The notes: a model not told the origin generated them from the letters alone. 17,431 nt of DNA from a virus (IMGVR_UViG_2541047898_000005:1-17431); one strand, 5' to 3'; shown: positions 1,345-17,431, counted from the first letter of the stretch. Program-made: numbers and translations.

Positions 1345-1700
1345 TGGCCCGTATCGGGGGAACCTGTTATTTCAAAATTGACGGTCAGCAGCTATCGCTG
1401 ACCGGCGGCATTGAGGTGCCCATGAACAGGACGGTCAATGATGACATCATCGGCCTGGACGGCTCAGTGGACCGCAAGGAAACTCACCGTGCGCCTTATG
1501 TCAAAGGGACCTTCAAGGTGCCGAAGAATTTTCCGGTGAGCAAAATCACCTCGTCTGATGAGATGACCATCACTGCCGAGCTGGCGAACGGTCAGGTCTA
1601 TGTATTGTCGTCCGCCTGGCTGCACGGAGAAGCGAACCATAATGCCGAAGAAGGCACGGTTGATCTTGAGTTCCACGGTGAAGAAGGGGATTACCAGTAA
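1344..1700 (+). CDS. Tail tube protein (Mu gpM-like)
   Basis: 118-aa ORF with ATG overlapping the upstream stop (TAATG) and a GAGGAG Shine-Dalgarno; sits between the sheath and chaperone genes. Confidence 0.6.
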   Translation: MARIGGTCYFKIDGQQLSLTGGIEVPMNRTVNDDIIGLDGSVDRKETHRAPYVKGTFKVPKNFPVSKITSSDEMTITAELANGQVYVLSSAWLHGEANHNAEEGTVDLEFHGEEGDYQ

Positions 1701-1969
1701 TGAAAGAGCTTGAGTTAAAGAAACCGATTATCGCTCATGGTGAGACACTCTCCGTACTGGAGTTTGATGAACCCACCGGGAAGGATGTCCGCGAGCTGGG
1801 GTATCCCTACCAGATGAATCAGGATGAGTCCGTCAGACTTCTGGCGCATGTGGTGTCGAAATACATTGTGCGGCTGGCGAAAGTGCCGCAAAGCTCTGTC
1901 GACCAGATGTCTCCGGCAGACCTGAATGCAGCGGCGTGGCTTGTGGCTGGTTTTTTCCTCCAGGCCTGA
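1700..1969 (+). CDS. Tail assembly chaperone (lambda G-like short product)
   Basis: 89-aa ORF, TAATG overlap with the tube gene, immediately upstream of the tape-measure gene; contains the slippery heptamer T_TTT_TTC at 1951-1957. Confidence 0.6.
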   Translation: MKELELKKPIIAHGETLSVLEFDEPTGKDVRELGYPYQMNQDESVRLLAHVVSKYIVRLAKVPQSSVDQMSPADLNAAAWLVAGFFLQA

Positions 1970-2118
1970 CGGCTGAATACCTCACTGATCGCTTCTTTGA
2001 CTGCGCCAGCTACTGGCGCATTAATCCCTTCGAATTGCTGAATATGCCGATCAGTGAAATTCCCTTGCTGGTCAGTCAGGCAAACAGGATAGAGCAGGAG
2101 AAACGCACACATGGCTGA
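1700..2118 (+). CDS. Tail assembly chaperone frameshift fusion (lambda GT-like), made by -1 slippage at 1951-1957
   Basis: ORF 1936-2118 is in the -1 frame relative to 1700-1969 and overlaps it across the X_XXY_YYZ heptamer T_TTT_TTC. The fused reading would be ...LVAGFF then PPGLTAEY... The extension ends 7 nt into the tape-measure gene. Confidence 0.5.
1951..1957 (+). other. Slippery heptamer TTTTTTC for programmed -1 ribosomal frameshift
   Basis: Zero-frame codons GGT TTT TTC; after a -1 slip the next codon is CCT (1957-1959), which continues ORF 1936-2118. Confidence 0.5.
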
Positions 2119-4063
2119 ATTTGAGCTTAAGGCGTTGATCACCGGTGTCGACAGGCTTTCTCCCGCGCTGTCGAAAATGCAAAAGAAAATCCGGGGATTT
2201 AAACGCCAGGCGGAAGAAGCGTCACAGGGTGGGCTGGCGCTTGGTGGCGGACTGGCAGCGGGGCTGACGCTTTCCCTGAAATCTTATGCCGATCAGGAAA
2301 ACGCCGCTACCGGGCTGAAAGTCGCCATGATGGATGCGAACGGCGAGGTTGGAAAGAGCTTTCAGGACATCAATAAACTGGCTATTGGCCTGGGTAACCA
2401 GCTACCCGGTACAACGGCTGATTTCCAGAACATGATGCAGATGCTGGTGCGTCAGGGGATCCCGGCAGAAAACATTCTGGGTGGTGTGGGTAAAGCGACA
2501 GCTTATCTTGCGGTACAACTGAAAAAAACACCGGAAGCGGCTGCCGAGTTTGCCGCAAAGATGCAGGATGCTACCGGAACGGCCTCAGAAGACATGATGG
2601 GGCTGTTCGACACAATTCAGAAGGCGTTTTATCTGGGCGTTGACGACACCAACATGCTGTCATTCTTCACTAAAACCAGCTCTGTTCTGAAGATGGTGAA
2701 TAAGGACGGTCTTCAGGCTGCACAGAGTCTTGCCCCCATCAGTGTCATGATGGATCAGATGGGGATGAACGGGGAGTCGGCAGGTAATGCCCTGCGAAAA
2801 GTTATCCAGTCCGGATTAAGCGTTAAGAAAATCAGGGACGTCAATAAAATCATGGCCCGCCAGAAACTCGGAGTACAGCTCGATTTTACTGATGGCAAAG
2901 GGAGTTTTGGTGGTCTTGATAACATGTTCAGGCAACTGGCAAAGCTGCGAAAACTGACCGACGTTAAGCGAACCGGTGTACTTAAGGCAATATTTGGTGA
3001 TGATGCCGAAACCCTTCAGGTGGTCAATGCGCTGATCGATAAAGGAAAGGATGGCTACGATCAGATCCAGCAGAAGATGAATAAACAGGCCAGCCTGAAT
3101 AAACGTGTTCAGGCTCAGCTTGGTACGCTGTCCAACCTGTGGGAGGCAATGACGGGGACCGCAACTAACGGCCTTGCGGCTATTGGCGGCGCATTTTCTG
3201 GTGACGCTAAGAACATCACGCAGTGGCTGGGGGAGTTGGGGGAGAAATTCACGAAGTTTGCGGATGAAAATCCCCGGGTTATTCGCGGCGTCGTCGGGCT
3301 TGCTGCCGGTCTTGCGATTCTGAAACTGGGATTGATGGGCGTGGGCAGTGCCATCAGCATTGTCAGCAGGATCATGTCGATGACGCCGATTGGCATGATT
3401 GCGACGGCGATAGCCCTGGCTGCGGGATTAATTATCACCAACTGGGATGTTGTCGGACCTTATTTCAAGAAGCTCTGGGAAACCATTAGTCCTTATTTTG
3501 AGGCTGGCTGGGAACTCCTTAAGAAAGTTTTTGCCTGGTCGCCGCTGGGGATGGTGATCAATAACTGGGGGCCGGTTGTTAAGTGGTTTCAGGATATGTG
3601 GGACAAGCTGAAGCCAATTATTGAGTGGTTTACCGACAGTTCCGGTGACACGGTCGATGCCATTAACTCTGCGCAGTGGGGCGCGGGTGCTTATGATGCT
3701 TATGGGACGGGAATACCGCCACGGGGATACACTCCTTATCCGGCGCAGTCAAACAACGCCTCCGGTGACACGGTCGATGCCATTAACTCGGCGCAGTGGG
3801 GCGCGGGTGCTTATGATGCTTATGGGACGGGAATACCGGCGCGGGGATACACACCTTATCCGGCGGTAGATCCGGCTCAGTCAAACAACGCCTCCGATGC
3901 CACAGGCTCGAATCCCTTCATGATTAATAAAGCTACCGCGCCAAAAGTTGATGGTGAGATCAAGGTATCATTTATAAATATGCCACCAGGTATGCGGGTT
4001 ACGGAAACACGCTCCAGTGGCATTGATATAAATCACGATGTTGGCTATACCCGATTTTGGTAG
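2111..4063 (+). CDS. Tail tape measure protein
   Basis: 650-aa ORF directly after the frameshifted chaperone pair; Ala/Gly-rich helical N-terminal part, hydrophobic central stretch (GVVGLAAGLAILKLGLMGVGSAISIV...), CAGGAG Shine-Dalgarno before the ATG. Confidence 0.8.
   Translation: MAEFELKALITGVDRLSPALSKMQKKIRGFKRQAEEASQGGLALGGGLAAGLTLSLKSYADQENAATGLKVAMMDANGEVGKSFQDINKLAIGLGNQLPGTTADFQNMMQMLVRQGIPAENILGGVGKATAYLAVQLKKTPEAAAEFAAKMQDATGTASEDMMGLFDTIQKAFYLGVDDTNMLSFFTKTSSVLKMVNKDGLQAAQSLAPISVMMDQMGMNGESAGNALRKVIQSGLSVKKIRDVNKIMARQKLGVQLDFTDGKGSFGGLDNMFRQLAKLRKLTDVKRTGVLKAIFGDDAETLQVVNALIDKGKDGYDQIQQKMNKQASLNKRVQAQLGTLSNLWEAMTGTATNGLAAIGGAFSGDAKNITQWLGELGEKFTKFADENPRVIRGVVGLAAGLAILKLGLMGVGSAISIVSRIMSMTPIGMIATAIALAAGLIITNWDVVGPYFKKLWETISPYFEAGWELLKKVFAWSPLGMVINNWGPVVKWFQDMWDKLKPIIEWFTDSSGDTVDAINSAQWGAGAYDAYGTGIPPRGYTPYPAQSNNASGDTVDAINSAQWGAGAYDAYGTGIPARGYTPYPAVDPAQSNNASDATGSNPFMINKATAPKVDGEIKVSFINMPPGMRVTETRSSGIDINHDVGYTRFW
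3641..3892 (+). repeat. In-frame tandem duplication inside the tape-measure gene (unit 1 = 120 bp at 3641-3760; unit 2 = 132 bp at 3761-3892 with a 12-bp insertion)
   Basis: Near-identical DNA copies encode SGDTVDAINSAQWGAGAYDAYGTGIP(P/A)RGYTPYPA...QSNNA twice; read directly from the sequence. Confidence 0.9.
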
Positions 4064-4091
4064 CCAGGATTCCCCTCACATGTATTGCTGG

Positions 4092-4119
4092 TTGTAAGTC
4101 ATAAATAGAGTGATAGAAT
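4092..4119 (+). promoter_or_regulatory. Putative sigma70 promoter for the moron gene (-35 TTGTAA 4092-4097, 16-nt spacer, -10 TAGAAT 4114-4119)
   Basis: Hexamer match and spacing, about 35 nt upstream of the ATG at 4155; no experimental support. Confidence 0.3.
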
Positions 4120-4154
4120 TAATGCACATTTAGAAAAATGTTAATAGGCGAAAA

Positions 4155-4685
4155 ATGAAAGGCTATATCACAGCAAGTGTAATTCTTGGAGCAGCGGCTA
4201 TTTTTTCATCTCTCATAATCTCTGGCAACATCTCCTTTAAAGATGAACATATTATTCAGTTATCTGGAGGAGCCATAAAACTTGGTGATGTTTATAAAGA
4301 AAATAAATTGATAAGTGCAAAGATTATTTTTCCAGATAATCAGGGCGAACAGATTCTTGTTGTCGACGGCAATCCTGAAAACTTTAAGGAGGATTTTCAG
4401 GAGAAATTAAATAAAGTAATAAAAACTTTAAATGCGTCAAAGAAAAAAGATGAAGAGAAAGTTAGCCTGGATAATTTAAGTGTTATTGAAGAGTCTAAAC
4501 TAGAGCTCGTTTCTGCGGTGCGTTACTCTGCTCAGTATGTTCCTATGTTTACTCTGACGCTGGACAAAAAAGAAATTACCATGCCTAAAAATACGGTAAT
4601 ATTTCCATTTGCCAGCGATGAAACAGCTAAGTATTTAAATGAACAACAGCAAAAGTATAAAGATTCGTTGTTTCTGACTCGCTAA
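4155..4685 (+). CDS. Hypothetical secreted or membrane-anchored protein (moron inserted in the tail module)
   Basis: 176-aa ORF, visibly AT-rich and Lys-rich compared with the flanking tail genes. N-terminal hydrophobic segment (ITASVILGAAAIFSSLIISG) suggests a signal peptide or TM anchor; there is no Cys, so not a lipoprotein. Flanked by its own candidate promoter and a rho-independent terminator. Confidence 0.6.
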   Translation: MKGYITASVILGAAAIFSSLIISGNISFKDEHIIQLSGGAIKLGDVYKENKLISAKIIFPDNQGEQILVVDGNPENFKEDFQEKLNKVIKTLNASKKKDEEKVSLDNLSVIEESKLELVSAVRYSAQYVPMFTLTLDKKEITMPKNTVIFPFASDETAKYLNEQQQKYKDSLFLTR

Positions 4686-4702
4686 TTAATAAAATTCATT
4701 AC

Positions 4703-4736
4703 AAGGCCACCTTCTAATAGGTGGCTTTTTTATTTT
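4703..4736 (+). terminator. Rho-independent terminator after the moron gene
   Basis: Stem GCCACC (4706-4711) pairs with GGTGGC (4720-4725) around an 8-nt loop, followed by TTTTTTATTTT (4726-4736). Confidence 0.6.
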
Positions 4737-4746
4737 CGGAGTGTAT

Positions 4747-6117
4747 ATGACGTGGAAAGACAGGCTTCAGGATGCGTCATTTCGAGGTGTGCCGTTTAAG
4801 GTTGAAGAAGAAAGTGCGGGAACCGGCCGTCGTGTGGAAACACACGAATATCCGAACCGCGACAAACCCTATACCGAAGATCTGGGAAAAGTCACTTTCC
4901 GCCCGTCCATCACGGCTTATGTGGTGGGAGATGACTGCTTTGACCAGCGCGATCGCCTGATTGACGCGCTGAATAAACCCGGTCCCGGCACGCTTGTCCA
5001 TCCGACTTACGGTGAGCTGAAAGTCTGTGTTGACGGGGAAGTTCGGGTCAGCACATCGAAGAGTGAAGGGCGTATTGTCCGCTTTGACCTGAAGTTTGTC
5101 GAAGCGGGAGAACTCTCTTATCCCACTTCAGGTGCGGCGACGGCGCAGACGCTGATGTCATCCTGTTCTGCACTGGATGACTGCATCAGTGACAGCTTCA
5201 GTGGTTTCAGTATCGATGGCGTGGCGGATTTTGTGCAGAACGACGTCGTCGGTAATGCCGGCACAATGCTGGGGTATGTTTCTGATGCGATGAAAGTGGT
5301 GGATTCTGCCGTATCGGATGCCGCCAGGCTGTTGCAGGGGGATATCTCGGTACTTCTGCCGCCGCCATCGTCAGGCAAAAATTTCGTTGAGCAGGTGCAG
5401 AAAATGTGGCGTACCGGGAAACGCCTTTATGGTAACGCCAGCGACCTGGTCACCATGATCAAAACGCTTTCCGGTGTCAGCCTCGGCAGCGATCTGCAAC
5501 CGCGCGGCGTCTGGAAAACGGACAGTAAAACCACCGCCACGGCGACGCAGCAGCGTAACGTGGTTGCCAGCACCCTTCGTGCGACCGCAATCAGCGAAGC
5601 GGCGTATGCCGTCACCCGATTGCCTGCGCCAACAACTTCCGCGGTGATGCAGAATGCCGCAGTGGGGCAGTCAACAACTTCCGCGGTGATGCAGAATGCC
5701 GCAGTGGGGCAGGCAACAACACCCGCGCAGAGCACTGGCTGGCCTTCCGTCACGCATCCGGCACTGAACAATGCTCCGGCGGTGAAAAGCACGGTTGACC
5801 TGCCGACGTGGGAAGAACTGACTGACATTCGCGACACACTGAATACGGCAACTGATAAGGAGTTGTCCCGTACAACCAGTGATGCGCTGTTTCTGGCGCT
5901 GCGCCGGGTGAAAGCAGATCTGAATGCGGATATCAACACGCGCCTTGAACAGTCTGCACGGATCATTCAGCGCACGCCGGATGAGGTTTTACCCGCGCTG
6001 GTGCTGGCGGCGACCTGGTTTGATAACGCGGCGCGTGACGCGGACATTATCCGGCGTAATGCCATTACGCATCCCGGCTTTGTGCCGGTGATCCCTCTGA
6101 AGGTGCCAGTGCAATGA
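4747..6117 (+). CDS. DNA circulation protein (Mu gpN / gp43-like)
   Basis: Position after the tape-measure gene in Mu order; N-terminus MTWKDRLQDASFRGVPF... matches my memory of the Mu N family. ATG at 4747 has a GGAG Shine-Dalgarno; the track's GTG at 4741 is less likely. Confidence 0.65.
   Translation: MTWKDRLQDASFRGVPFKVEEESAGTGRRVETHEYPNRDKPYTEDLGKVTFRPSITAYVVGDDCFDQRDRLIDALNKPGPGTLVHPTYGELKVCVDGEVRVSTSKSEGRIVRFDLKFVEAGELSYPTSGAATAQTLMSSCSALDDCISDSFSGFSIDGVADFVQNDVVGNAGTMLGYVSDAMKVVDSAVSDAARLLQGDISVLLPPPSSGKNFVEQVQKMWRTGKRLYGNASDLVTMIKTLSGVSLGSDLQPRGVWKTDSKTTATATQQRNVVASTLRATAISEAAYAVTRLPAPTTSAVMQNAAVGQSTTSAVMQNAAVGQATTPAQSTGWPSVTHPALNNAPAVKSTVDLPTWEELTDIRDTLNTATDKELSRTTSDALFLALRRVKADLNADINTRLEQSARIIQRTPDEVLPALVLAATWFDNAARDADIIRRNAITHPGFVPVIPLKVPVQ
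5632..5715 (+). repeat. 42-bp in-frame tandem duplication (2 units) inside the DNA-circulation gene
   Basis: acaacttccgcggtgatgcagaatgccgcagtggggcag(t/g)ca twice, encoding TTSAVMQNAAVGQ(S/A) twice. Confidence 0.9.
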
Positions 6118-7193
6118 ACGATAACGTCACGCTACGGGTAAATGGCCGAGAGTGGAATGGCTGGACATCGGTGCGCATCGGTGCCGGTATTGAACGGCTG
6201 GCGCGGGATTTCAGCGTGGAGATCACCCGCCAGTGGCCGGGAGATGAGGGTATCACCACGCTTCAGCCGCGCATTAAAAATGGTTCAAAAGTGGAAGTGC
6301 TGATTGGTGATGAGCTGGTGATCACCGGCTGGGTGGAGTCGACCCCCGTTCGTTACGATGCCCGTTCGGTCAGCACCGGTATTGCCGGACGTAGTCTGAC
6401 TGCTGACCTGATTGACTGTGCAGCCGAACCGACACAGTTTAACGGACGATCGCTGGTACAGATTGCGCAGGCGCTTGCTGCGCCTTTCGGCATTGAGGTG
6501 GTGAACAGCGATGCGCCGTCGGGTGTTATTCCGGATGTCCAGCCTGATCACGGTGAAACGGTGATCGAAGTGATCAACAAAATACTCGGTCAGCAGCAGG
6601 CGCTGGCTTATGACGACCCGCACGGCAGGCTGGTGATTGGTGGTATTGGCTCAACGCGGGCACATACCGCGCTGGTACTTGGGGAAAACATCCTTTCCTG
6701 TGATACGGAGAAGAGTATCCGGGAGCGGTTTTCAGTTTACCAGGTGGCGGGGCAGCGTGCCGGAAACGACGATGATTTCGGTGAGGCCACCACCACCGCG
6801 CTGCGGGCCCGCACAGAGGATGCATTTATTGCCCGTTACCGTCCGATGTATATCAGGCAGACAGGGCAGGCTACGGGGGCAGGCTGTATTGCGCGTGCTG
6901 ACTTTGAAGCCCGACAACGGGCGGCGCGGACGGATGAAACCACCTATGTGGTGCAGGGCTGGCGACAGGGTAACGGTACGCTGTGGCAGCCCAACCAGCG
7001 GGTGATTGTCTTCGATCCGGTCTGTGGTTTCGACAATACCGAACTGCTTGTCTCGGAAGTCACGTTTACTCAGGACCAGAATGGCACCCTGACGGAAATC
7101 CGTGTCGGCCCACCTGATGCTTATCTGCCTGAACCCGAAGCCCCCGGCGCGCGGAAAAAGAAAAAAGCCAGAGTACAGGAGGACCCGTTCTGA
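6114..7193 (+). CDS. Baseplate hub / tail protein (Mu gpP / gp44-like)
   Basis: 359-aa ORF with ATGA overlap to the upstream gene; synteny between the DNA-circulation and spike genes. Confidence 0.55.
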   Translation: MNDNVTLRVNGREWNGWTSVRIGAGIERLARDFSVEITRQWPGDEGITTLQPRIKNGSKVEVLIGDELVITGWVESTPVRYDARSVSTGIAGRSLTADLIDCAAEPTQFNGRSLVQIAQALAAPFGIEVVNSDAPSGVIPDVQPDHGETVIEVINKILGQQQALAYDDPHGRLVIGGIGSTRAHTALVLGENILSCDTEKSIRERFSVYQVAGQRAGNDDDFGEATTTALRARTEDAFIARYRPMYIRQTGQATGAGCIARADFEARQRAARTDETTYVVQGWRQGNGTLWQPNQRVIVFDPVCGFDNTELLVSEVTFTQDQNGTLTEIRVGPPDAYLPEPEAPGARKKKKARVQEDPF

Positions 7194-7741
7194 TGAGGAC
7201 GATTGAAGCCATGCAGCGACAACTTCTCGGCCTGATTGGGCGGGCCGTGGTGAAAAGCATCAGTGCCGCCACGAAATGTCAGACCGTGGATGTGTCCCTG
7301 ATTGCCGGTGAACCCAAAGCCGGGGTTGAACATCTTGAACCCTACGGTTTTACCGCAAGGGCAAACAGCGGTGCGGAAGCGGTGGTGTTGTTTCCGGATG
7401 GCGACCGTTCTCATGCGGTGGTTGTTACGGTGTCGGACCGGCGCTACCGCCTGAAAGGGCTGCAGACGGGTGAGGTGGCTGTCTATGACGATCAGGGGCA
7501 GTCCGTGACGCTGACCCGGGAGGGGATCGTGGTGGACGGTGCAGGGAAAACGATCACGTTTCGCAATGCACCTGAAGCACGTTTTGAAATGGATCTGGAA
7601 GTGACCGGACAGGTGAAAGACCTGTGCGACTCCGGCGGCACCACCATGTCAGCGATGCGGCTTGCCTATAACGGGCATCGTCACAGAGAGAACGGTCAGG
7701 GTAGTAACACCGACAAACCTGATAAAGCGATGGAGGCATGA
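7193..7741 (+). CDS. Baseplate spike / assembly protein V-like (Mu gp45-like)
   Basis: 182-aa ORF with TGATG overlap; position and size fit the gpV-type spike in Mu/P2 baseplate modules. Confidence 0.55.
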   Translation: MRTIEAMQRQLLGLIGRAVVKSISAATKCQTVDVSLIAGEPKAGVEHLEPYGFTARANSGAEAVVLFPDGDRSHAVVVTVSDRRYRLKGLQTGEVAVYDDQGQSVTLTREGIVVDGAGKTITFRNAPEARFEMDLEVTGQVKDLCDSGGTTMSAMRLAYNGHRHRENGQGSNTDKPDKAMEA

Positions 7742-8166
7742 TGGAACTGTGGCTGACGGTGAACGGTAAACGCACCTGCGCCAGCGCACCGCTGGATCCG
7801 CTGACCCGCGCCGTGGTGATTTCCCTGTTCACCTGGCGGCGGGCGGAGCCTGATGACAATGCCGACGTCCCGATGGGATGGTGGGGGGATACCTGGCCTG
7901 CGGTACAGAATGACCGTTACGGCTCCCGACTGTGGCTGCTTCAGCGCAGCAAACTGACCAATCAGCTGGTGCAGACGGTAAGGGGATATATCCGCGAATG
8001 CCTGCAATGGATGACTGATGACGGCGTGGTGTCCCGTATTGATCTGGATATCCGCCGCACCGGGATTAATGAACTGGGTAACAGTATCACTCTCTGGCGT
8101 CGTGACGGACCGGTAATGATTTCTTTTGATGATCTGTGGAGTGCGATAACGCATGGCGGACAGTGA
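7738..8166 (+). CDS. Baseplate wedge protein, gp25/GPW-like (Mu gp46-like)
   Basis: 142-aa ORF, translationally coupled (ATGA overlap), sitting between the spike and the J-like gene. Confidence 0.55.
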   Translation: MMELWLTVNGKRTCASAPLDPLTRAVVISLFTWRRAEPDDNADVPMGWWGDTWPAVQNDRYGSRLWLLQRSKLTNQLVQTVRGYIRECLQWMTDDGVVSRIDLDIRRTGINELGNSITLWRRDGPVMISFDDLWSAITHGGQ

Positions 8167-9211
8167 ATTTCAGCGCCCGACGCTGGCAGAAAATATCAGT
8201 ATGCTCCGTAACGATTTATTCGCCAGGCTGGACGTCAGCGACACGCTCCGGCGCATGGATGAAGACGTGCGGGCAAAGGTGTATGCGGCGGCGCTGCATA
8301 CGGTTTACGGTTACATCGATTATCTGGCAATGAACATGCTGCCTGACCTGTGCGATGAGTCCTGGCTGGCGCGACATGCTGCGATGAAACGGTGTCCGCG
8401 CAAGGGGGCCACGACTGCCAGCGGGTATATGCGCTGGGAAGGTGTCAGCGATGGCCTGAAGGTGACCGCCGGGAGTGTTATTCAGCGCGATGACCTGGTT
8501 CAGTACACGGCAACTTCTGATGCAACCAGCTCAGGTGGAGTCCTGCGCGTGCCGATCGCCTGCTCAACTGCAGGCGCGGTCGGTAACGCTGACGACGGTA
8601 CGGCATTAATCCTGGTCACGCCGGTGAATGGTCTGCCGTCTTCCGGTGTGGCAGATACCCTGACTGGCGGATTCGATACTGAAGATCTGGAAACGTGGCG
8701 CGCCCGCGTCATTGAGCGGTATTACTGGACGCCGCAGGGCGGGGCTGACGGGGACTATGTCGTCTGGGCTAAAGAAGTGCCCGGCATTACCCGCGCATGG
8801 ACATACCGTCACTGGATGGGAACGGGAACTGTCGGTGTGATGATTGCCAGCAGTGACCTGATTAATCCCATTCCGGAAGAATCAACGGAAACGGCGGCAA
8901 GACAACACATTGAGCCACTGGCCCCGGTGGCAGGCTCTGATTTGTATGTGTTCAGGCCGGTGGCGCATACTGTGGATTTTCATATCCGCGTGACGCCGGA
9001 CACACCCGAAATACGGGCTGCCATCACCGCCGAGTTGCGTTCGTTCCTGCTGCGTGATGGTTATCCGCAGGGAGAACTGAAGGTGTCACGTATCAGTGAA
9101 GCGATTTCCGGTGCGAACGGGGAATACAGCCATCAGTTGCTTGCACCGGCAGACAATATCTCCATTGCAAAAAATGAGCTGGCAGTTCTGGGGACGATTT
9201 CATGGACGTGA
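8153..9211 (+). CDS. Baseplate J-like protein (Mu gp47 / P2 gpJ-like)
   Basis: 352-aa ORF in the expected position; overlaps its neighbours in the way coupled baseplate genes do. Confidence 0.6.
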
Positions 9212-9786
9212 CAAACGATGATTACATCCGTCTGTTGTCGGCGCTGCTGCCGCCCGGTCCGGCGTGGTCAGCCAGCGATCCGGCGATTGCCGGTGCGGCA
9301 CCGTCATTAACCCGCGTTCATCAGCGTGCGGATGCCCTGATGCGGGAGCTGGATCCGCGCACCACCACCGAACTGATAAATCGCTGGGAGCGTCTGTGCG
9401 GCCTGCCGGATGAATGTAATCCCGCAGGGACACAGACCCTTCGCCAGCGTCAGCAACGGCTGGATGCGAAGGTTAACCTGGCGGGTGGCATCAACGAGGA
9501 TTTTTATCTTGCACAGCTCGCTGCCCTGGGCAGACCAGATGCCGCCATCACGCGATACGACAAAAGCACGTTCACCTGCTCATCAGCCTGCACTGACGCT
9601 GTGAATGCGCCGGAATGGCGGTATTACTGGCAGGTCAACATGCCAGCCGCCACCAACACCACCTGGATGACATGTGGCGATCCCTGTGATTCCGCACTGC
9701 GTATCTGGGGGGACACCGTTGTCGAGTGTGTGCTTAACAAACTCTGCCCGTCGCATACCTACGTAATTTTTAAATATCCGGAGTAA
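9202..9786 (+). CDS. Tail/baseplate protein, Mu gp48 / P2 gpI-like (YmfQ-like)
   Basis: 194-aa ORF immediately upstream of the tail-fibre gene; same length and position as the e14 ymfQ product as I recall it. Confidence 0.55.
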
Positions 9787-9789
9787 TCC

Positions 9790-10293
9790 ATGCATCGTAT
9801 AGACACGAAAACCGCGCAGAAGGATAAGTTCGGCGCGGGTAAGAACGGTTTTACCCGTGGTAACCCCCAGACCGGCACGCCTGCCACCGATCTGGATGAT
9901 GACTACTTTGACATGTTGCAGGAGGAGCTTTGCAGCGTTGTGGAGGCATCCGGTGCCAGCCTGGAGAAGGGGCGGCACGACCAGTTGCTTACCGCGCTTC
10001 GTGCGCTGCTGTTAAGCCGCAAGAATCCGTTTGGCGATATCAAATCGGATGGCACGGTGAAAACGGCTCTCGAAAACCTTGGTTTGGGAGAAGCGGCTAA
10101 ACGAAATGTGGGAGCACCTGATCATCGGATTCCAGACATATCTGCATCAGGCTCTGGCAAATACAACTGTGAGGTATCTTGTGCTCAAAATGACCCAGAG
10201 TTGTCAAAGGATTTTCCTGGGAAGGAATCAACTGAATCAAGAGGTAATTTTATTATTGGATGTGATGACGGCGCAGGGGTTGATACAGGCTGA
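9790..10293 (+). CDS. Tail fibre protein: constant N-terminal part (9790-10096) fused to the currently expressed variable C-terminal cassette (10097-10293)
   Basis: ORF runs across the left inverted repeat into the invertible segment. The post-repeat C-terminus resembles the minus-strand cassette at the other end (GEAAKR...SGKYN...ESRG(N/K)F). Confidence 0.6.
10079..10096. repeat. Left inverted repeat / putative recombination crossover site of the invertible segment (ttggtttgggagaagcgg)
   Basis: Perfect 18-bp inverted repeat with 11911-11928, lying inside the tail-fibre ORF and next to a Gin/Pin-family invertase gene. Confidence 0.85.
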
Positions 10294-10997
10294 TGTTCAG
10301 TGGGTACTCAAGCCGCAGCGCCGGCCTAGAAACTTATTCCGTTTGTGGCAACCAAGGGATAAGAATCAATAGAAGTATCAGACCGGGCGGCTATGTATAG
10401 AAGAGTAAATATGGAAATAGGAGGATTTTATGCATCAGCAGACTTAGGGCGCCTGGGCCAATCACTGACACGTTATTAATTAAGAAAACACTTTAATACT
10501 GGCTGGAACGAGGCCTGTTGATGCATTAGTTCATCTAGCTGAAATGTGAGTGATATATATGGGAGAACGCCGAATAGGAAAGAGCCCAGATTGCTAGGAA
10601 GATGGTTAACATAACTGGCTATAAATACCTCGGTGATACGAGGGAGAATTTATTTACAAGGACTGATCAGATAGCAATGGGTGTCGGAACTCGACCAAAT
10701 TCCTCTTTAACCGTAAATAGTAGCCCGGTGACTGGGTTAATGATTTGCCGATAGGTGAGGAACAGGCCCTGTATATATTTTGCCTACAATAGCGGTGGGA
10801 ACGTGTGCAGGATGATAATGGCGGGGGCCAAGAAAATGACTGCCCTAGGCGACTGGCCGTAAAGGCCAACTGCCGTCCGCCGGGGAGCTCGTAACTGTAA
10901 CTGGCATCGCGTAAAAGTGATCACGGACAGTGTTAAGTATGATTGTGCCGGAGTAGGTCCGGCTGAGTCCCGGCTGCAGTCACTGTTTAATCCGGCT

Positions 10998-11009
10998 GAG
11001 GGTACCCTC
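10998..11009. repeat. Perfect 12-bp palindrome gagggtaccctc at the exact centre of the invertible segment
   Basis: Symmetry axis falls between 11003 and 11004, which equals (10079+11928)/2. Confidence 0.9.
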
Positions 11010-11644
11010 TGTTTCATCCAACTGAGATTGGAGCTCTGCTTTAAACGCTCCTACGCCGGAACCGTCTTATTTCTCAGTGTCTTGCACCAAATTTACGCCG
11101 TCACAGTAACAGAATCCCGTTAACCGCCGGATAGCGGTTGTACTGAACGGCCAGTGGCGTAGGCCTTTCATTACTTTGCCATCCCGCGGTTTGAAGCTAC
11201 ACACGTGCCTACCGAGATGGTCTCACAAAATTTCATTGCATTTGAACCCCACAGAACAGCCGACTATAAGAGGCGCCATCGGTCTACTGTTAGCGTCTAA
11301 AGAGTTAGATGCCCGGATACCTACATACTCGCCTAGATGATTCGTTGATGTAGATATATATTCCCTCTGATCGTGGACGTATTTATAGACAGGTGGGTAC
11401 CCCGCTTTCCTATTAAACTCGTCTTTTCTCTATACGGCGTTATCCAATATATTGTACAGAAAATACATTTAGATGCACTATTTCATGGGCGGGTCACGCT
11501 CCATTCACTACATCAGATTTTCTCACATTAACGGAGTGAAGGTCATTTGATGAGAGTCACTAAGGAAGTGGATTCATCAAGCCTCCTTCCTTGGGTATAC
11601 GTAGTTCTAAACATACCAGTTCGTGCCGATTCTTCTTTTGTGTC

Positions 11645-11928
11645 TTACGTATCTTTTGTGATAACCGCCTTACGGTGCTTGGCCGGCGCACCGGCTAGTG
11701 TACTCTCTGAAAATCGTCCTCTATCAATAACTGCCCCGGCAGCCAAGGCAAGAGGAAACTTACCGCGAGATTCGTGAGATTTCGCTCTTTGATCATCCTT
11801 CGCAAACTTCGGGTATATATCACCACTAAGTAACTGAAAGTTGTATTTGCCAGATCGAAATGGAGATATAGCTGAAATCTGTTGATCAGGTATTCCAACA
11901 GTTCGTTTTGCCGCTTCTCCCAAACCAA
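11645..11928 (-). CDS. Alternative tail-fibre variable C-terminal cassette (promoterless; would fuse to the constant part after inversion)
   Basis: Minus-strand frame open from the right inverted repeat to a stop at 11645, encoding GEAAKRTVGIPDQQISAISPFRSGKYNF...ESRGKF..., parallel to the plus-strand cassette. Confidence 0.45.
11911..11928. repeat. Right inverted repeat / putative recombination crossover site (reverse complement of 10079-10096)
   Basis: ccgcttctcccaaaccaa is the exact reverse complement of ttggtttgggagaagcgg. Confidence 0.85.
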
Positions 11929-11994
11929 CGTTTATGAAAATGAAGAAATAACAAGCAAATGGCATCATTCCTGCTTTTACCAGGGGGATTTAAC

Positions 11995-12549
11995 ATGCTT
12001 ATTGGCTATGTACGTGTATCAACAAATGACCAGAATACCGATCTACAACGTAATGCGCTGAACTGTGCAGGATGTGAGCTGATTTTTGAAGACAAGATAA
12101 GCGGTACAAAGTCCGACAGACCAGGACTGAAAAAGCTGCTCAGGACATTATCGGCAGGTGACACGCTGGTGGTCTGGAAACTGGACCGACTGGGGCGCAG
12201 TATGCGGCATCTTGTCGTGCTGGTGGAGGAGTTGCGCGAACGAGGCATCAACTTTCGTAGTCTGACGGATTCAATTGATACCAGTACCCCAATGGGGCGC
12301 TTTTTCTTTCATGTGATGGGTGCCCTGGCTGAAATGGAGCGTGAACTGATTGTTGAACGAACAAAAGCTGGACTGGAAGCTGCTCGCGCACAGGGACGAA
12401 TTGGTGGACGTCGCCCCAAACTTACACCAGAACAATGGGAGCAGGCCGGACGATTAATTGCAGCAGGAATTCCTCGCCAGAAGGTAGCGATCATCTATGA
12501 TGTTGGTGTATCGACACTGTATAAGATGTTTCCGGTCGGAGATAAATGA
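11995..12549 (+). CDS. pin: Site-specific DNA invertase, serine recombinase of the Gin/Hin/Pin/Cin family
   Basis: 184-aa product beginning MLIGYVRVSTNDQNTDLQRNAL... with the catalytic Ser in the YVRVST motif, ...VVWKLDRLGRSM..., and a C-terminal HTH-like region (GIPRQKVAIIYDVGVSTLYK). It matches the Gin/PinE sequences I remember closely. GGGGGA Shine-Dalgarno 6 nt upstream. The track's upstream Met (11959) is probably not the start. Confidence 0.9.
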   Translation: MLIGYVRVSTNDQNTDLQRNALNCAGCELIFEDKISGTKSDRPGLKKLLRTLSAGDTLVVWKLDRLGRSMRHLVVLVEELRERGINFRSLTDSIDTSTPMGRFFFHVMGALAEMERELIVERTKAGLEAARAQGRIGGRRPKLTPEQWEQAGRLIAAGIPRQKVAIIYDVGVSTLYKMFPVGDK

Positions 12550-12716
12550 AACCGCAGGCTCGTCGTATGCAAGAACGTGCTGCGGCTGGCTGGTGAACTT
12601 CCGATAGTGCGAGTATTGAATGATTTACAGCCGTTATTGATTTTACATATTTTTTGTATGAAAGGATTAGCGCCTCCTCCCACCGATCCTCCATGACTTT
12701 ACGCCACTGTCTCTCG

Positions 12717-12741
12717 GACTGCTATGTGCCAGGAGCGGATG
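12717..12741. repeat. Junction motif copy A (ggactgctatgtgccaggagcggatg)
   Basis: Shares gct(a/c)tgtg(c/t)caggagcgga(t/c)g with the copy at 14257-14281; located between pin and the first cargo gene. Confidence 0.5.
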
Positions 12742-12792
12742 CGACCCATCGGCATGTTTTAGTCGTCGCAAGCAAATCATAACGGTTAATTG

Positions 12793-12822
12793 TTGAGTAG
12801 ATTTTTCATGTCAATTTATATT
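12793..12822 (+). promoter_or_regulatory. Possible sigma70 promoter for the 432-aa cargo gene (TTGAGT, 18 nt, TATATT)
   Basis: Weak hexamer matches in an AT-rich leader; AAGGAAG Shine-Dalgarno before the ATG at 12882. Low confidence. Confidence 0.2.
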
Positions 12823-12881
12823 ATTGTAGATAAGTCTGATAAAAATTTCAGTCACATCCTCTTGGATAATAAGGAAGTTAT

Positions 12882-14180
12882 ATGAAAGCTCGTTTAATAC
12901 CACCGTACGAAAACTACACTGGCAATGTTTTATGGCGAAAAGAGGATTTTATTAATAAAGTCGACGATATCTCAACATCTCTAAAAAAGTTAAGAGATAT
13001 GGGATATTGGGCCAGTGCCTATCCTGAAGGAGATGGCATTACATTTAAATATACCAAGGATAGTTATCAAAAAAGCAGTATCGAAATTCTAGAAGACTTC
13101 TCAATATGCTTTGAGTGGGTAGAAATAGAGTTAGCTAAATCAAGAAGCTCTAACCTAGAATTAGCTGAATTAGAGGGTAAAAACAAAAATATGGAGTGCA
13201 TAGTTATTGTGCCGATTGAGAAGATTTTCATTCAGGAAACCATCGAGATCGGAAAGTATATTTTTTATTGCGGAAGACAATTTGATGAAGAGTCACATAA
13301 GCGATTATCAGAGCAAGATGGTTCGTATATACAGTTTAACTGTGACCTACCATATATTGATTTATTAAAACTTAATTCAAGCATTGATCATAACAGCCAT
13401 GTTATAAACATGTGTTTATCTATAGCTGAATATGCGCTTGATTTAGTCAGATTTTCTCACAGCTCATTTACACGTATGGAATATACCCCTAATCCTGCAG
13501 GTCAACGCTCTGACGGATTTTATGATGTAGAAATCATTCCTCGTGAGAGGACTCATCTTAAACCAATTAAGATAAGTGGAATATCAAGACCCCTTGCTGT
13601 GAGTAATAATTGGCTAGGCCCTCAGGTTGACAGCTTGTATTACCCTGGGTTGCAATATTTATCTTCTATCTACGATGGAGTCGTTGAAAATGAACTTTCA
13701 AAATTAGTTAGCTCCGTAGTTAGGGCATGTAGGCAATCTTTTTATTCAATTGGCGCGGAATCACAATTTCTAAACCTAGTCTTTGCACTTGATGGTCTTG
13801 CTAATATTGACCCAAATTGGAAAGGATGGAAGCAAAGGACCTACATTGCAGCACTTACATGTAATAACTCACTAATCAAATTTAAGAAAAACCTAGAAGT
13901 TTATGACGAGTTATATACTGACGTAAGAAACAAGCTTGTTCATGATGGTAAAGATTTTTACGAACTTAACGTCAACGCGAACGAATCCTCTGAACAAATC
14001 TTTAAGTATATTAAGATAATTATAATACTCATCGAAAGTAACGGCTTTTCCACTTTGCAAGAATTGAGAGATTATGCAGTTCACCTACTTCAGCAGGAGG
14101 ATTATAGAACTGCTTCTGTTGAGATAATTGACAAAGTATCTCTTTTAAGAGGAAAAAAACCTAATTATCCTTCATGGTGA
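12882..14180 (+). CDS. Hypothetical cargo protein with a C-terminal HEPN-like R-x4-H motif (candidate abortive-infection RNase)
   Basis: 432-aa AT-rich ORF with a strong Shine-Dalgarno. Motif DVRNKLVHDG fits the HEPN R-[NQ]-x3-H signature, about 90 residues from the C-terminus in a predicted helical region. Family assignment is inference. Confidence 0.45.
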   Translation: MKARLIPPYENYTGNVLWRKEDFINKVDDISTSLKKLRDMGYWASAYPEGDGITFKYTKDSYQKSSIEILEDFSICFEWVEIELAKSRSSNLELAELEGKNKNMECIVIVPIEKIFIQETIEIGKYIFYCGRQFDEESHKRLSEQDGSYIQFNCDLPYIDLLKLNSSIDHNSHVINMCLSIAEYALDLVRFSHSSFTRMEYTPNPAGQRSDGFYDVEIIPRERTHLKPIKISGISRPLAVSNNWLGPQVDSLYYPGLQYLSSIYDGVVENELSKLVSSVVRACRQSFYSIGAESQFLNLVFALDGLANIDPNWKGWKQRTYIAALTCNNSLIKFKKNLEVYDELYTDVRNKLVHDGKDFYELNVNANESSEQIFKYIKIIIILIESNGFSTLQELRDYAVHLLQQEDYRTASVEIIDKVSLLRGKKPNYPSW

Positions 14181-14256
14181 TTAAATCAACGTGCTAATTA
14201 ATTTTTAATATAACTTCTGCTCCTCGCTCTCAGCGGACCTTCAGCTCAGTGATATC

Positions 14257-14281
14257 GTCCGCTCTGTGTCAGGAGCGGACG
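14257..14281. repeat. Junction motif copy B, forming a hairpin (stem GTCCGCTC/GAGCGGAC, loop tgtgtcag) between convergent cargo genes
   Basis: 8-bp perfect stem read from the sequence; no U-tract, so not a canonical intrinsic terminator. Left half matches copy C, right half matches copy A. Confidence 0.5.
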
Positions 14282-14373
14282 TTACTGACATCACAATGTG
14301 TTAATCAATGGAGAGCAGGTCACCATAATGTCATGGGTATCGCTGGTGATATGATCGCAATACACGACAATTA

Positions 14374-15063
14374 TTATTTAATTATTTTAAAAAGTTCATT
14401 GTAGCTACAACCTTTGAATATTTCGAACTGATCATGGTAATTTGAATAAGCGCTTGCCATCATTCCGATATAACTATCCCATGATGACTCAGAAACTACC
14501 ATTTCACCACGCTCTAATTCATCAATTAAAATATAAATGATATTAAATTGTGCAACAAGAGCAGTGTAGGTGGTGATGAGATTATTTAGAAGGTCTGAAT
14601 GATTAGGTTTGATTTTCCACAAACCAAAACTATCCCGAATTGCAACTAATTCGAATCGTAAATCTTTTGACTCAGAAAGTAACTCCCTCCCACTTGTAGT
14701 GAGATGCTTGTAGAGTATGGGGTTCTCACTTTTTATTCTTGGCTGTATAGAAATAAGTGATTGATAACATTGATGATTTAAGTCCTTTGATCGAAACATG
14801 CTGTCGATGAACAATGTAGTTCTCTCGAAAGCCTTTTCTGATTTTTTGTTTTTAATCCATTCATTTACCCTTGTTAATGCATAAATCGCTAGTCCAAGTG
14901 TTATTGTTGAAACTGTTGCAGTAATTGTTGATGGTTCAATTTTTTTAAAAAACCAGATATCAATCCATGCAAAAGAGACTGAGCCGAGATACATAAACAA
15001 CATGTGACTCGCGAAGTATTCCCAAACACCTTTTAAATAGCTTTTCATGTAGATCCTTAACAT
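14374..15063 (-). CDS. Hypothetical membrane protein (two N-terminal TM helices plus a ~150-aa cytoplasmic domain); real start probably the internal Met at 15048
   Basis: AT-rich ORF. Hydrophobic segments MLFMYLGSVSFAWIDIWFF and ITATVSTITLGLAIYAL. The ATG whose reverse complement is at 15046-15048 has an AAGGA Shine-Dalgarno 5 nt upstream, whereas the first ATG has none. Confidence 0.5.
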   Translation of the reverse strand: MLRIYMKSYLKGVWEYFASHMLFMYLGSVSFAWIDIWFFKKIEPSTITATVSTITLGLAIYALTRVNEWIKNKKSEKAFERTTLFIDSMFRSKDLNHQCYQSLISIQPRIKSENPILYKHLTTSGRELLSESKDLRFELVAIRDSFGLWKIKPNHSDLLNNLITTYTALVAQFNIIYILIDELERGEMVVSESSWDSYIGMMASAYSNYHDQFEIFKGCSYNELFKIIK

Positions 15064-15217
15064 TTTCTTAATTATATTTTATGGTGGTATTTTTGTTAGT
15101 ATCGGTATGGATTAGAAATAGTTGATACTTTTATGCCCTGAGAGCATGAAAACTGGAAAAGCCTTGCTCATGATATAAATAGTGTTAGTTGCCACTGCTT
15201 TGGAAGTTATCCTTTAA

Positions 15218-15412
15218 ATGGGCTATCGGAAAGCCAGACTTCTAGCAGATGCTGAATCCGTGATTTTGCCGCTGGAGCGCGCTGTCAGGCTGAATATGGC
15301 AACAGATGAGGAGCGCAGTCGACTGGAGGCATGGGAACGCTACAGCGTTCTGGTCAGTCGTGTGGATCCTGCAAATCCTGAATGGCCGGAAATGCCGCAA
15401 GAAGTTGTATGA
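15218..15412 (+). CDS. Hypothetical small protein (64 aa; Glu/Arg-rich, predicted helical)
   Basis: ORF with normal (non-AT-rich) composition inside the 640-bp spacer between two cargo genes; no recognisable motif. May be a gene fragment. Confidence 0.25.
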
Positions 15413-15438
15413 GCTCTGGTGTGAGCTTACATATCTAT

Positions 15439-15478
15439 GGCACAGAGTAAAGCCTAATCTGACAGTCCGCTCTGTGCC
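15439..15478. repeat. Junction motif copy C within a 9-bp-stem hairpin (ggcacagag ... ctctgtgcc, 22-nt loop)
   Basis: Contains gtccgctctgtgcc, which shares 12 contiguous nt with copy B; lies between the membrane-protein gene and the RES-like gene. Confidence 0.5.
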
Positions 15479-15702
15479 GAAGCTAGCAAAGCCATGGTCC
15501 TTTCGCAGCAAGTTGCGTAAATAAGGCGTTTTTATCTCTTGAAGCATTCTACAAAGCCAACTCCTCGCTCAAACAGACGTGTCTGTTCAGCAATCTGCCC
15601 GCTTGGTATCAAGGGACGCCAGTAACGCGATACCGGGTGAATTCCTTCCTTAACTGCCCTCACATCATCTTTAATAATAGTTTACCCTGATATAACGGAT
15701 GA

Positions 15703-17082
15703 TCAGAAGTCAATCAGGTCATCGAATTTCTGAGGTGGCTCTTGTTTTCGAACGCTATCTCCCTGATGAATCTCCGTCTCACTTGTTTGGTATTTTACAC
15801 CAGTAATTTTATGATAAGTCATACTGTTGGTTTTCAACAGTAGTGCATCATTTTTGTCATGCGAGGATGAAAATGAACCCATATGTCTCGGTTTTATTTG
15901 TTCCTCAACTATCAACTGAATTTCCGGAACAAAAGCATACTGGTCATCTTCGATGTGTTCATACATCTCAACATTATATCGGCGAGATTTATCTGCGGCA
16001 TGCCTGACGCCGGAAGACTTATTAAACAGAACGACATTATATCCTGTCTCAGCATCCTCACCGTTGGCATCTACCTGGGTAGATTTAAAGCTGACACCAT
16101 CAAGCTTAAATTTATTTCGGTCACCTAGGTAATCGGCAACCACTTGGGTGATGAGGTAATCACTGTCCTGCCTTTTTCCAAAAGTAGGAAGCGTCAACTT
16201 ACGGGAAAGCGTACTGAAAAAAATCGCGCGCTCACTGGTTTTGCGAGTCTGAGGATCAAATTTACTACCTGAGCCGAAACTAATCGAGTCAAGGGCAGAA
16301 ATGTCCAGCACTTTTAGCTCGCGTAACGGTACAAAACAGGCCGTTACTACAATACTGCCGACGGGCGGCCTTACTTCAGCAATTGCCAAATTCACTGAGG
16401 TTGCACCGTAAAATACTGAAATCCCCTGTGCGTTCATACGGCCCGAGCGAGCCAAAGTTGTTGGGGGAGGTCCAAAATTTTTCTCGGGATGCTCCAAGGC
16501 TTGCTTTACTTCCTCTTGGTCCTCAAAAACCCTTGCACGAAAAAGATGAACCTCATCAGTCAGAGTTTTTATCGGTGAATTACTGTCTCTGTTTTTTAGT
16601 TTATCGATATCACTGAAAAGTGAATCTAGGAAATCATTAACTTCACGGTTAAAATATCGTGTTTCTTTCATAAGGGAGTCAGTGGCTTTACTCCAGGTAT
16701 GCGCAAGCTCTCCGCTATAGTGATTTATGTGCCGATAAAGAAACCCGTCATTATACCGGATGTAGTCATAATCGTTATGCGGATTATATTCATCACAAAG
16801 AAATTCATAAATATCTTCAGCTACGTCCCATTCGACGCCCAGTTCTCCGTAGATGACATCCTGCGCGCTATCACCGCGCCCGGAATCATAGATATCCTCA
16901 TATATATCATAGTAGTACTCAAAAACCTCATTCATCATCTTGAGAATATATTTGAGGTGGATGTTTTTACGCTTCCTTTTGCAGTAAGAGCAAATCTGAA
17001 AATTATTTCCAGTTTTTATTATATGCTGCATGACATATTTATCGTTCACGCATTTATGACAAATATACTTATCTTCCCACAT
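15703..17082 (-). CDS. RES-domain-like protein with an N-terminal Cys4 zinc-ribbon-like motif (candidate NAD+-targeting effector)
   Basis: 459-aa AT-rich ORF. N-terminus has CHKC...CSYC. Central segment LFRARV...(~25 aa)...ARSGRMNAQGISVFYGATSVNLAIAEV...(later) VSFKS...YNVVLF fits my memory of the RES (Arg-Glu-Ser) core, G-R-x-N...G...Y.A......A..E. No HMM search run. Confidence 0.55.
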   Translation of the reverse strand: MWEDKYICHKCVNDKYVMQHIIKTGNNFQICSYCKRKRKNIHLKYILKMMNEVFEYYYDIYEDIYDSGRGDSAQDVIYGELGVEWDVAEDIYEFLCDEYNPHNDYDYIRYNDGFLYRHINHYSGELAHTWSKATDSLMKETRYFNREVNDFLDSLFSDIDKLKNRDSNSPIKTLTDEVHLFRARVFEDQEEVKQALEHPEKNFGPPPTTLARSGRMNAQGISVFYGATSVNLAIAEVRPPVGSIVVTACFVPLRELKVLDISALDSISFGSGSKFDPQTRKTSERAIFFSTLSRKLTLPTFGKRQDSDYLITQVVADYLGDRNKFKLDGVSFKSTQVDANGEDAETGYNVVLFNKSSGVRHAADKSRRYNVEMYEHIEDDQYAFVPEIQLIVEEQIKPRHMGSFSSSHDKNDALLLKTNSMTYHKITGVKYQTSETEIHQGDSVRKQEPPQKFDDLIDF

Positions 17083-17278
17083 TTTTTACTCACTCATCAT
17101 CAGCTGATACAAGGTCACTTTCCTGCAATTTTATAATTAAATCAAGCATAAAAACCCTCTTCACACCTTAATGCTTTCAGTGTGAAAATAATTAGTGGTG
17201 CACTGTACTGATAATAATTACGAACTTCCGCTTCTCGCTCATAACAGACATTCACTACAGTTATGGTAGAAGGTATGT

Positions 17279-17431
17279 ATGCTGATTGGGGAAAGTGTGA
17301 AAGAAAAGAAGACTGCTGCGCTGTTTGTCGTCACCTTTATCTTCATTGGCTATGCAAGTCATAATACAAGGTGGGACAAAACTGAGACACATAAGGCCTC
17401 ACAATGGCTTGCAAGGCTTTACATGTTTTGA
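17279..17431 (+). CDS. Possible small membrane peptide (50 aa), divergent from the RES-like gene; ORF ends exactly at the window edge
   Basis: ATG at 17279 preceded by AGAAGG. Translation MLIGESVKEKKTAALFVVTFIFIGYASHNTRWDKTETHKASQWLARLYMF has one hydrophobic helix. Below the ORF-track length cut-off; weak support. Confidence 0.2.
   Translation: MLIGESVKEKKTAALFVVTFIFIGYASHNTRWDKTETHKASQWLARLYMF

Follow-up and report, generated by a model that had tools for sequence, protein, structure and literature searches.

The e14 element of Escherichia coli K-12, a deleted prophage remnant attached at icd, has long been known for mcrA, the gene of an HNH type IV restriction enzyme that lies between the invertase gene pinE and the right attachment site, in the order pinE-mcrA-attR(icdC). 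In another phage family, the P2 Z/fun (TO) hotspot houses validated defence systems (PMC9519451; 10.1101/2024.10.15.618418). Among single-gene systems, aRES have been described as standalone proteins of 300-600 aa that combine a RES domain with PF18870 (Osterman et al., bioRxiv 10.64898/2026.01.28.702374, January 2026). Here we analyse the slot between pinE and the right flank of a virus sequence of 17,431 nt, IMGVR_UViG_2541047898_000005:1-17431 (the window, meaning this whole stretch). Its positions 12550-17431 (the island) carry three open reading frames (ORFs), ORF1 to ORF3. We found conserved flanks around hypervariable cargo with at least 12 variants, which supports placing the slot among prophage defence hotspots, a known kind of system. 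One cargo gene, ORF3, is by its sequence the already characterised aRES, and ORF1 and ORF2 are good candidates for further defence genes. We consider it probable that this accessory slot of the e14 family received three independently acquired single-gene cassettes, most likely each protecting the lysogen against other phages. The features on which the argument draws are as follows.

11995-12549, plus strand: serine invertase gene pinE, which anchors the slot on the left (Pfam Resolvase 1.6e-51 and HTH_7; annotated pinE in NZ_CP080080; 94% to K-12 pinE)
12550-12740, plus strand: conserved post-pin sequence ending in a degenerate L palindrome (12717-12740); 92-99.7% identical in prophages with other cargo, to 12585 or 12739
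about 12741-14256: cassette A, with ORF1
12882-14180, plus strand: ORF1, 432 aa, predicted new N-terminal alpha/beta domain and C-terminal HEPN-like domain
14215-14280, plus strand: tandem junction palindromes, an R variant TTCTGCTCCTCGCTCTCAGCGGAC (14215-14238) and a perfect L hairpin GTCCGCTCTGTGTCAGGAGCGGAC (14257-14280)
14257-15225: cassette B, with ORF2
14374-15048, minus strand: ORF2, 224 aa, probable two-helix membrane hairpin and four-helix bundle
15226-15478, plus strand: scar, the 3' end of Peduovirus (P2) gene G with about 66 bp more, and with a truncated L motif (15465-15478) at its end
15477-17249: cassette C, with ORF3 (aRES)
15703-17082, minus strand: ORF3, aRES, a standalone RES-domain NAD+ phosphorylase by homology, with a probable Zn-ribbon/PF18870 N-terminal domain
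17223-17249, plus strand: R motif AACTTCCGCTTCTCGCTCATAACAGAC, the right edge of the cargo, found in the aRES cassette (e14-like, P2-like and lambdoid) and in e14-like prophages with other cargo
17227-17431, plus strand: conserved right flank, homologous to the lambda b region, with 90-92% identity to the flank of prophages that hold other cargo

The window covers the late half of an e14-like prophage of E. coli. An identical locus is present in NZ_CP080080 (locus L001), a complete prophage of this type with Mu-type tail genes, ymfQ, ymfR and pinE, which matches the window at 99.4-99.9% identity except in the invertible tail-fibre segment. Its order is terminase-portal-capsid-sheath-tube-tape measure-baseplate-ymfQ-tail fibre/tfa-pinE, followed by the island and the host yagP'-paoDCBA genes. 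Compared with K-12 e14, the window is 96% identical over 8424-10093 (jayE-ymfQ-stfP) and pin is 94% identical. An earlier note, made from the window sequence alone, was therefore right to call the prophage e14-like, and its placing of mcrA at the same position agrees with the K-12 order given above. Both prophages thus belong to the same phage family and have the same slot between pinE and attR filled by a defence gene, but they differ in the cargo and in the attachment site, which is icd in K-12 and yagP'-paoD here.

The positions and strands of the three ORFs were as the note had given them (12882-14180, plus; 14374-15063 and 15703-17082, minus), and so was the sharp change of composition after the pin stop codon (12549), where GC content falls from 0.53 to 0.39. 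Precisely, the island has 0.391 and positions 1-12549 have 0.532 (0.543 without a moron at 4155-4685). Values of overall and third-codon-position GC (GC3) were 0.354/0.305 for ORF1, 0.335/0.317 for ORF2 and 0.414/0.407 for ORF3, versus 0.575/0.615 for one baseplate gene; GC3 spans 0.31-0.41 in the three island ORFs and 0.58-0.62 in tail genes. CTAG tetranucleotides, noted earlier in the AT-rich ORFs, are indeed about four times denser in the island (10 in 4.88 kb, 2.05 per kb) than in the tail region (7 in 12.5 kb, 0.56 per kb). If the island had the rate of the tail region, 2.7 sites would be expected in it (Poisson P(X>=10) = 5e-4); the ratio of observed sites to those expected from mononucleotide frequencies was 0.58 for the island, compared with 0.15 for the tail region. 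Rfam and transfer RNA scans of the window gave no match.

The complete three-gene island is rare, occurring in 6 of 5,426 complete E. coli genomes. Many more E. coli genomes have the same pinE and the same right flank of about 205 bp with other content between them, which bears out the suggestion of a variable accessory slot. These alternative cargos comprise hypothetical proteins with DUF4365, DUF4145 with a hypothetical protein, a LEM-3-like GIY-YIG protein with a FlxA-like one, a 4-fold beta flower protein, DUF6602, a restriction endonuclease with an integrase, IS1 and other hypothetical proteins; in one genome the slot is nearly empty. Several of the alternative-cargo prophages occupy the identical yagP'-paoD site. 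The three genes proved to be neither conserved core content of this prophage family nor structural or lysis genes. The known defence genes among the slot cargo are aRES in the window and McrA in K-12, and RefSeq annotation adds cargo of defence type, namely the restriction endonuclease, DUF4145 (which we take to be a HEPN family) and the GIY-YIG nuclease. The defence reading of the earlier note thus stands for ORF3, near-identical to a validated aRES, and for ORF1 and ORF2 is suggested by domains and context.

The truly variable part extends from about 12586 or 12740 to 17222, and the final 205 bp or so of the window (17227-17431) are conserved phage backbone rather than cargo. This right flank (compare L041 4003-4210) has visible homology to lambda DE3, about 200-400 bp left of the att core and close to the P arm, with an aligned 34-nt core that is 97% identical. 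Because of this homology, the slot is the counterpart of the lambda b region, by position (it follows the tail-fibre module and precedes att) and, on the right side, also by sequence. It differs in that lambda has genes of the ea47/ea31/ea59 type and no invertase, and what the two have in common is the flank alone, not the cargo. The flank also holds a 50-codon ORF (17279-17431), which ends exactly at the end of the window and has no RefSeq annotation. In NZ_CP182203 (strain JB2; L027 5483-7508), ORF1 is cut after about 300 codons by an ISKpn26 (IS5-family) insertion, and the remainder of the island is deleted together with the adjacent host DNA up to rclA.

ORF3 is the cargo gene that can be identified by homology. 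Its RES domain (PF08808) was found at residues 205-361 with E = 3.2e-14 and 53.7 bits against a cut-off of 23.2; the methods of the aRES preprint cite 'PF00808' for RES, and the accession that we found is PF08808. PF18870 (HEPN_RES_NTD1) was matched by hmmscan at E = 7.8e-4 and 20.2 bits, under the Pfam cut-off of 27.4, while the published definition of aRES uses an hhsearch probability above 80% for this domain (10.64898/2026.01.28.702374). Many ORF3 homologues at 40-70% identity have precomputed PF18870 matches. The family numbers 772 clusters, in which C8, C11, C31 and C34 (a four-cysteine ribbon), a GRMN motif, FYG, R215, Y225 and E236 are invariant or nearly so, and S334 is conserved in at least 90% of sequences. 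Compared with the aRES of E. coli UC5 (Table S4 of the preprint), 390 of 399 aa are identical, with one further difference in the C-terminal 60 (about 97.8% identity), and the 3' 399 nt of the gene have 4 mismatches. None of the ten substitutions falls in a family-invariant column. Given this near-identity and the intact invariant columns, we regard ORF3 as an allele of a validated defence gene; its sequence establishes it as aRES.

Three aRES, that of UC5 among them, have been shown to defend E. coli against diverse phages, with arrest of growth; T7 infection depletes NAD+, the product is ADP-ribose (ADPR)-1''-phosphate, active-site mutants lose defence, and the standalone protein works without an antitoxin (10.64898/2026.01.28.702374). 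ORF3 resembles the UC5 protein in length class (459 aa, within the aRES range), RES domain with a probable PF18870 domain, standalone state and mobile defence context, and differs in the ten substitutions and in its placement in an e14-like prophage slot. It stands alone in the window, with a 639-bp gap that contains a tail-fibre-assembly gene fragment on one side (the gap to ORF2 put at 640 bp in the earlier note) and no credible ORF on the other; homologue loci had no conserved and no antitoxin-like neighbour. A RES-Xre toxin-antitoxin pair was rejected, as no Xre or helix-turn-helix ORF flanks ORF3 and its 459 aa with an N-terminal extension compare with about 150-200 aa for such a toxin. 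Searches of ORF3 against PDB sequences by phmmer and by profile did not reach the solved RES toxins, and scans of ORF1-3 with PADLOC, NCBIfam and PHROG gave nothing useful. In Rahnella (L014-L017, 5001-7903), the gene immediately after a 51%-identical aRES homologue, in the same orientation, encodes an FRG-domain protein; since FRG also belongs to the ADP-ribosyltransferase (ART) superfamily, this pair may be a two-gene variant.

The cassette borders, drawn from BLAST against other loci, were sharp, and each gene was found elsewhere without the other two, in line with the earlier view that they are not one operon. Other prophages of E. coli and Salmonella have cassette A in the same slot, followed there by unrelated genes for 260-aa or 373-aa proteins. 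Cassette B is found on its own in a genomic island of strain CU42ET-1. A lambdoid prophage has cassette C by itself (97.4%), with a Lit-family exclusion gene on one side and hokD on the other. The sequence between ORF2 and aRES encodes a Caudo_TAP C-terminus (E = 5.5e-18) and is 94-96% identical to the 3' end of the tail-fibre-assembly gene G of P2, P22H4 and others. The whole block of ORF2, scar and aRES recurs at 99.4% in the P2-like prophage AHB5, between gene G and the sheath gene FI, that is, in the Z/fun hotspot. In the P2-like prophage (L023) the scar duplicates the end of an intact G gene, and phage 899 has a comparable G scar between two different cargo genes. Because of this duplication and the parallel in phage 899, we propose that the block was stacked in a P2-type hotspot and later moved to the e14-type slot. 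The two hotspots also have the same junction motifs; they differ in phage family and flanking genes, and the P2 hotspot lies between tail genes whereas the window slot lies beside the attachment site. Near-identical cassettes in e14-like, P2-like and lambdoid hotspots, together with the P2 gene scar, indicate that unrelated temperate phages share one cargo pool.

ORF1 belongs to a family of 171 homologue clusters of uniform length (about 430 aa) from Gamma- and Betaproteobacteria and one cyanobacterium. In 28 diverse sequences (44-86% identity, conserved over the full length), the R, N, L, V and H of an Rx4H motif, R349-N350-K-L-V-H354 (RNxLVH), are invariant, and the C-terminal domain is predicted to have the four-helix up-and-down HEPN fold. 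ORF1 itself had no significant match to a curated HEPN sequence family in Pfam, and 3 of the 28 homologues gave weak matches to HEPN_RiboL-PSP (best 0.0045). It is not ApeA: neither PF18862 (ApeA_NTD1) nor PF18739 (HEPN_Apea) matched ORF1 or its 27 homologues at E <= 1, hhalign against a genuine ApeA that matches both Pfam models gave a probability of 0.3%, and PADLOC gave no match. Homologues are solitary in Pseudomonas (an integrase/DUF3987 element, adjoining a DEAD helicase, MazG and an SLFN-type helicase) and in Klebsiella aerogenes (an island adjoining smpB, with integrase fragments), and one in Serratia sits in a two-gene islet, whose other gene was considered as a relative of ORF2 and rejected. 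ORF1 thus resembles the single-protein HEPN systems (ApeA, AbiD/F-type and HEPN toxins) in its RNxxxH-type motif, four-helix HEPN-like domain, large N-terminal domain and solitary position on mobile elements, but differs from them in lacking Pfam and PADLOC matches and in the ApeA profile result. On motif and predicted fold, we lean towards reading it as an abortive-infection protein of the HEPN RNase type from an unnamed family.

ORF2 was called at 14374-15063, and its homologues suggest a start at M6 (15048), giving 224 aa. The family is rare: among 5.8 billion proteins it forms 12 clusters, and a profile search brought together 36 representatives. Its N-terminal 90 aa or so, two moderately hydrophobic helices and a basic amphipathic stretch, are nearly invariant, while the remaining 135 aa or so are about 45% identical (homologues P0129-P0132 included), a pattern that points to swapped domains or to diversifying selection acting on the bundle. 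The AlphaFold2 model (mean predicted local distance difference test 89.7) has a helical hairpin followed by a four-helix bundle, and in the BFVD database one uncharacterised myovirus protein has the whole fold. An assignment to SLATT-type two-transmembrane effectors was rejected: no Pfam match was found in 31 family members, and a SLATT protein ranked 31st in BFVD (E = 1, TM score 0.2). One homologue lies in a Klebsiella BREX/AAA-HNH island, between BrxC/D-DEAD and AAA-HNH genes and a large helicase; another follows a umuC-like gene in a P1-like element; a third, in Citrobacter, is at the end of an icd-integrated prophage, adjoining the icd remnant. From the model and these contexts, ORF2 might be read as a protein that is anchored in the membrane, acts in exclusion or abortive infection and has a sensor domain under diversification, a tentative proposal to which we give slightly less than even chances.

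At every cassette border stands one or the other of two related palindromes, which share the stem GTCCGCT/AGCGGAC. We name them the L motif, with the consensus GTCCGCTC-TGTGYCAG-GAGCGGAC, and the R motif, with the consensus TTCCGCTYCTCGCTCA-n3-C(A/G)GAC. The tandem pair at 14215-14280 has a folding energy of -25.8 kcal/mol (z = -5.8) and recurs after ORF1 in five loci (L033-L037) and after the G scar in phage 899. The degenerate L copy at 12717-12740 has 3 mismatches and forms a 19-nt direct repeat with 14261-14279, and the truncated L at 15465-15478 stands exactly at the start of cassette C. The motifs also bound cargo in P2-like, phage 899, CU42ET-1, Salmonella and Klebsiella loci, the R motif is present in the lambda b region, and in P2-like, lambdoid, P1-like and e14-like phages the motifs stand at the edge of hotspot cargo. 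At least 119 IMG/VR contigs have the L motif. In 71 phage contigs conservation stops 2-3 nt beyond it, and the 500 nt that follow sort into 53 clusters. Upstream of it there is mostly one of three conserved modules, namely lambdoid DUF1627/DUF977, P2 tail fibre/G or P1-like umuC. The IMG/VR cargo at L motifs includes AbiH, a TIR-TM protein and a PF18870-HEPN protein, and in Pantoea SIR2 and a genuine ApeA. One IMG/VR contig (L058) has, just downstream of the L motif, a 340-aa cargo protein with a weak PF18870 match and an RNHLVH HEPN-type motif, which appears to be the HEPN-type equivalent of aRES within a lambdoid hotspot.

Copies of the motifs are few in E. coli, where 21-26% of genomes have them at 1-4 places, and a REP-like high-copy repeat was rejected for the R motif, which occurs at 1-3 places per genome. 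The lambda sib hairpin was rejected too, as it lies about 200 bp nearer att. A formal parallel exists with integron attC cassettes, which likewise are stacked single-gene, often promoterless-looking units with imperfect palindromes, conserved stems and sharp junctions. Here no integron integrase is nearby, the cassettes stand in both orientations and recombination is hypothetical; we presume the junction motif to be unrelated to attC, as it has no GTTRRRY core. The motifs may serve as handles for recombination, form structures at RNA 3' ends or belong to a repeat family that travels with acquired DNA. We regard it as rather improbable that the palindromes are sites of an integron-like exchange, not encoded by an integron, which shuttles single defence genes and on which ORF1 and ORF2 are new defence systems; if true, it would mean that single defence genes are shuttled via palindromes between unrelated temperate phages and genomic islands.

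In the explanation that we favour, the slot is a moron region of a temperate phage of the e14 family, set between its attR and its module of tail-fibre and invertase genes, and the cargo genes would act separately. On phage infection, aRES would phosphorolyse NAD+ to nicotinamide and ADPR-1''-phosphate, leading to growth arrest and aborted infection. ORF1 would be a HEPN-type RNase that is kept inactive by its large N-terminal domain until infection and then cleaves RNA, also an abortive infection. ORF2 would sit in the inner membrane, and its four-helix bundle, cytoplasmic and diversifying, would sense or block a component of the phage, the outcome being exclusion or a membrane-disrupting abortive infection. 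The cassettes would pass between unrelated prophages by recombination at the short common junction sequences (the GTCCGCT/AGCGGAC palindromes), leaving scars such as the P2 gene G fragment.

Several observations weigh against this explanation. By tblastn, none of the three proteins had a match in 50,697 records of sequenced phages, and promoter and terminator scans were no better than on shuffled sequence, giving no support for expression from the prophage. ORF1 and ORF2 had no match in PADLOC 2.0, Pfam, NCBIfam or annotated PHROGs, nor in Pfam when split into domains, so that we infer their defence role from a motif, predicted folds and context. The four-helix-bundle match of ORF2 is generic (designed bundles score equally well), and both of its N-terminal segments are just moderately hydrophobic. 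L-L cassettes in other Enterobacterales encode ordinary accessory genes (LysE, RcnB-like, MFS). Identical L 24-mers are multi-copy per genome in metagenome-assembled genomes of soil Alphaproteobacteria (Pseudolabrys, Xanthobacteraceae), where L motifs (L161-L240; for example L162, L163, L176 and L232) form tandem hairpins about 20 nt apart that adjoin ABC_sub_bind-like genes. Because the motif stands beside non-defence genes and is multi-copy in these bacteria, it may be an intergenic element of a generic kind and not a site of recombination. The missing database matches, the generic fold and the ordinary cargo at the same motif would suit ORF1, ORF2 or both being lysogenic-conversion morons unrelated to phage (stress tolerance, membrane physiology, competition) or decaying passengers, with aRES alone defensive. 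We judge this unlikely, though a serious contender: the HEPN motif of ORF1 is invariant and its full length conserved across the 28 homologues, which argues for selection on ORF1 as an enzyme, the homologues of ORF2 lie in a BREX/AAA-HNH island and prophage hotspots, and the neighbouring alternative cargos are mostly of nuclease or HEPN types.

Two further explanations were considered. That the genes are toxins of addiction or stabilisation modules, retaining the prophage in the lineage rather than defending against phages, is very unlikely, since no Xre, MNT or other small partner ORF lies beside the three genes in the window or the homologue loci, standalone aRES is reported as defence without an antitoxin (10.64898/2026.01.28.702374), and the slot genes are often swapped, not retained. 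A single multi-gene system with interdependent parts, ORF1 with ORF2 or ORF2 with aRES, might be read from the adjacent, convergent ORF1 and ORF2 and from the ORF2-scar-aRES block that e14-like and P2-like prophages share at 99.4%. It becomes extremely improbable when ORF1 is found in the same slot with the unrelated 260-aa or 373-aa genes in place of ORF2 and solitary in Pseudomonas, Serratia and Klebsiella, when ORF2 is found alone and aRES both found and active alone, and when the G-gene scar separates ORF2 from aRES.

The analysis defines a defence hotspot in the e14 family that is concrete and easy to clone, and it sets an allele of the validated aRES within a prophage. Two uncharacterised single-gene candidates are nominated, one from a widespread HEPN family of about 430 aa and the other a rare membrane protein with a diversifying C-terminus, and the junction palindromes offer a testable handle on the mechanism of cargo exchange.

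Elsewhere in the window, the AT-rich moron at 4155-4685 (GC 0.345, 176 aa), between the tape-measure and DNA-circularisation genes, matches phrog_5485 (unknown function) at 3.8e-108 and, weakly, an endonuclease PHROG. The invertible tail-fibre segment (10074-11933) is bounded by inverted repeats of about 40 bp at 10074-10113 and about 11893-11933. Inside it, the stretch of about 10114-11894 is unmatched in the NZ_CP080080 prophage, indicating that prophages otherwise 99.4-99.9% identical differ in their host-range cassette.

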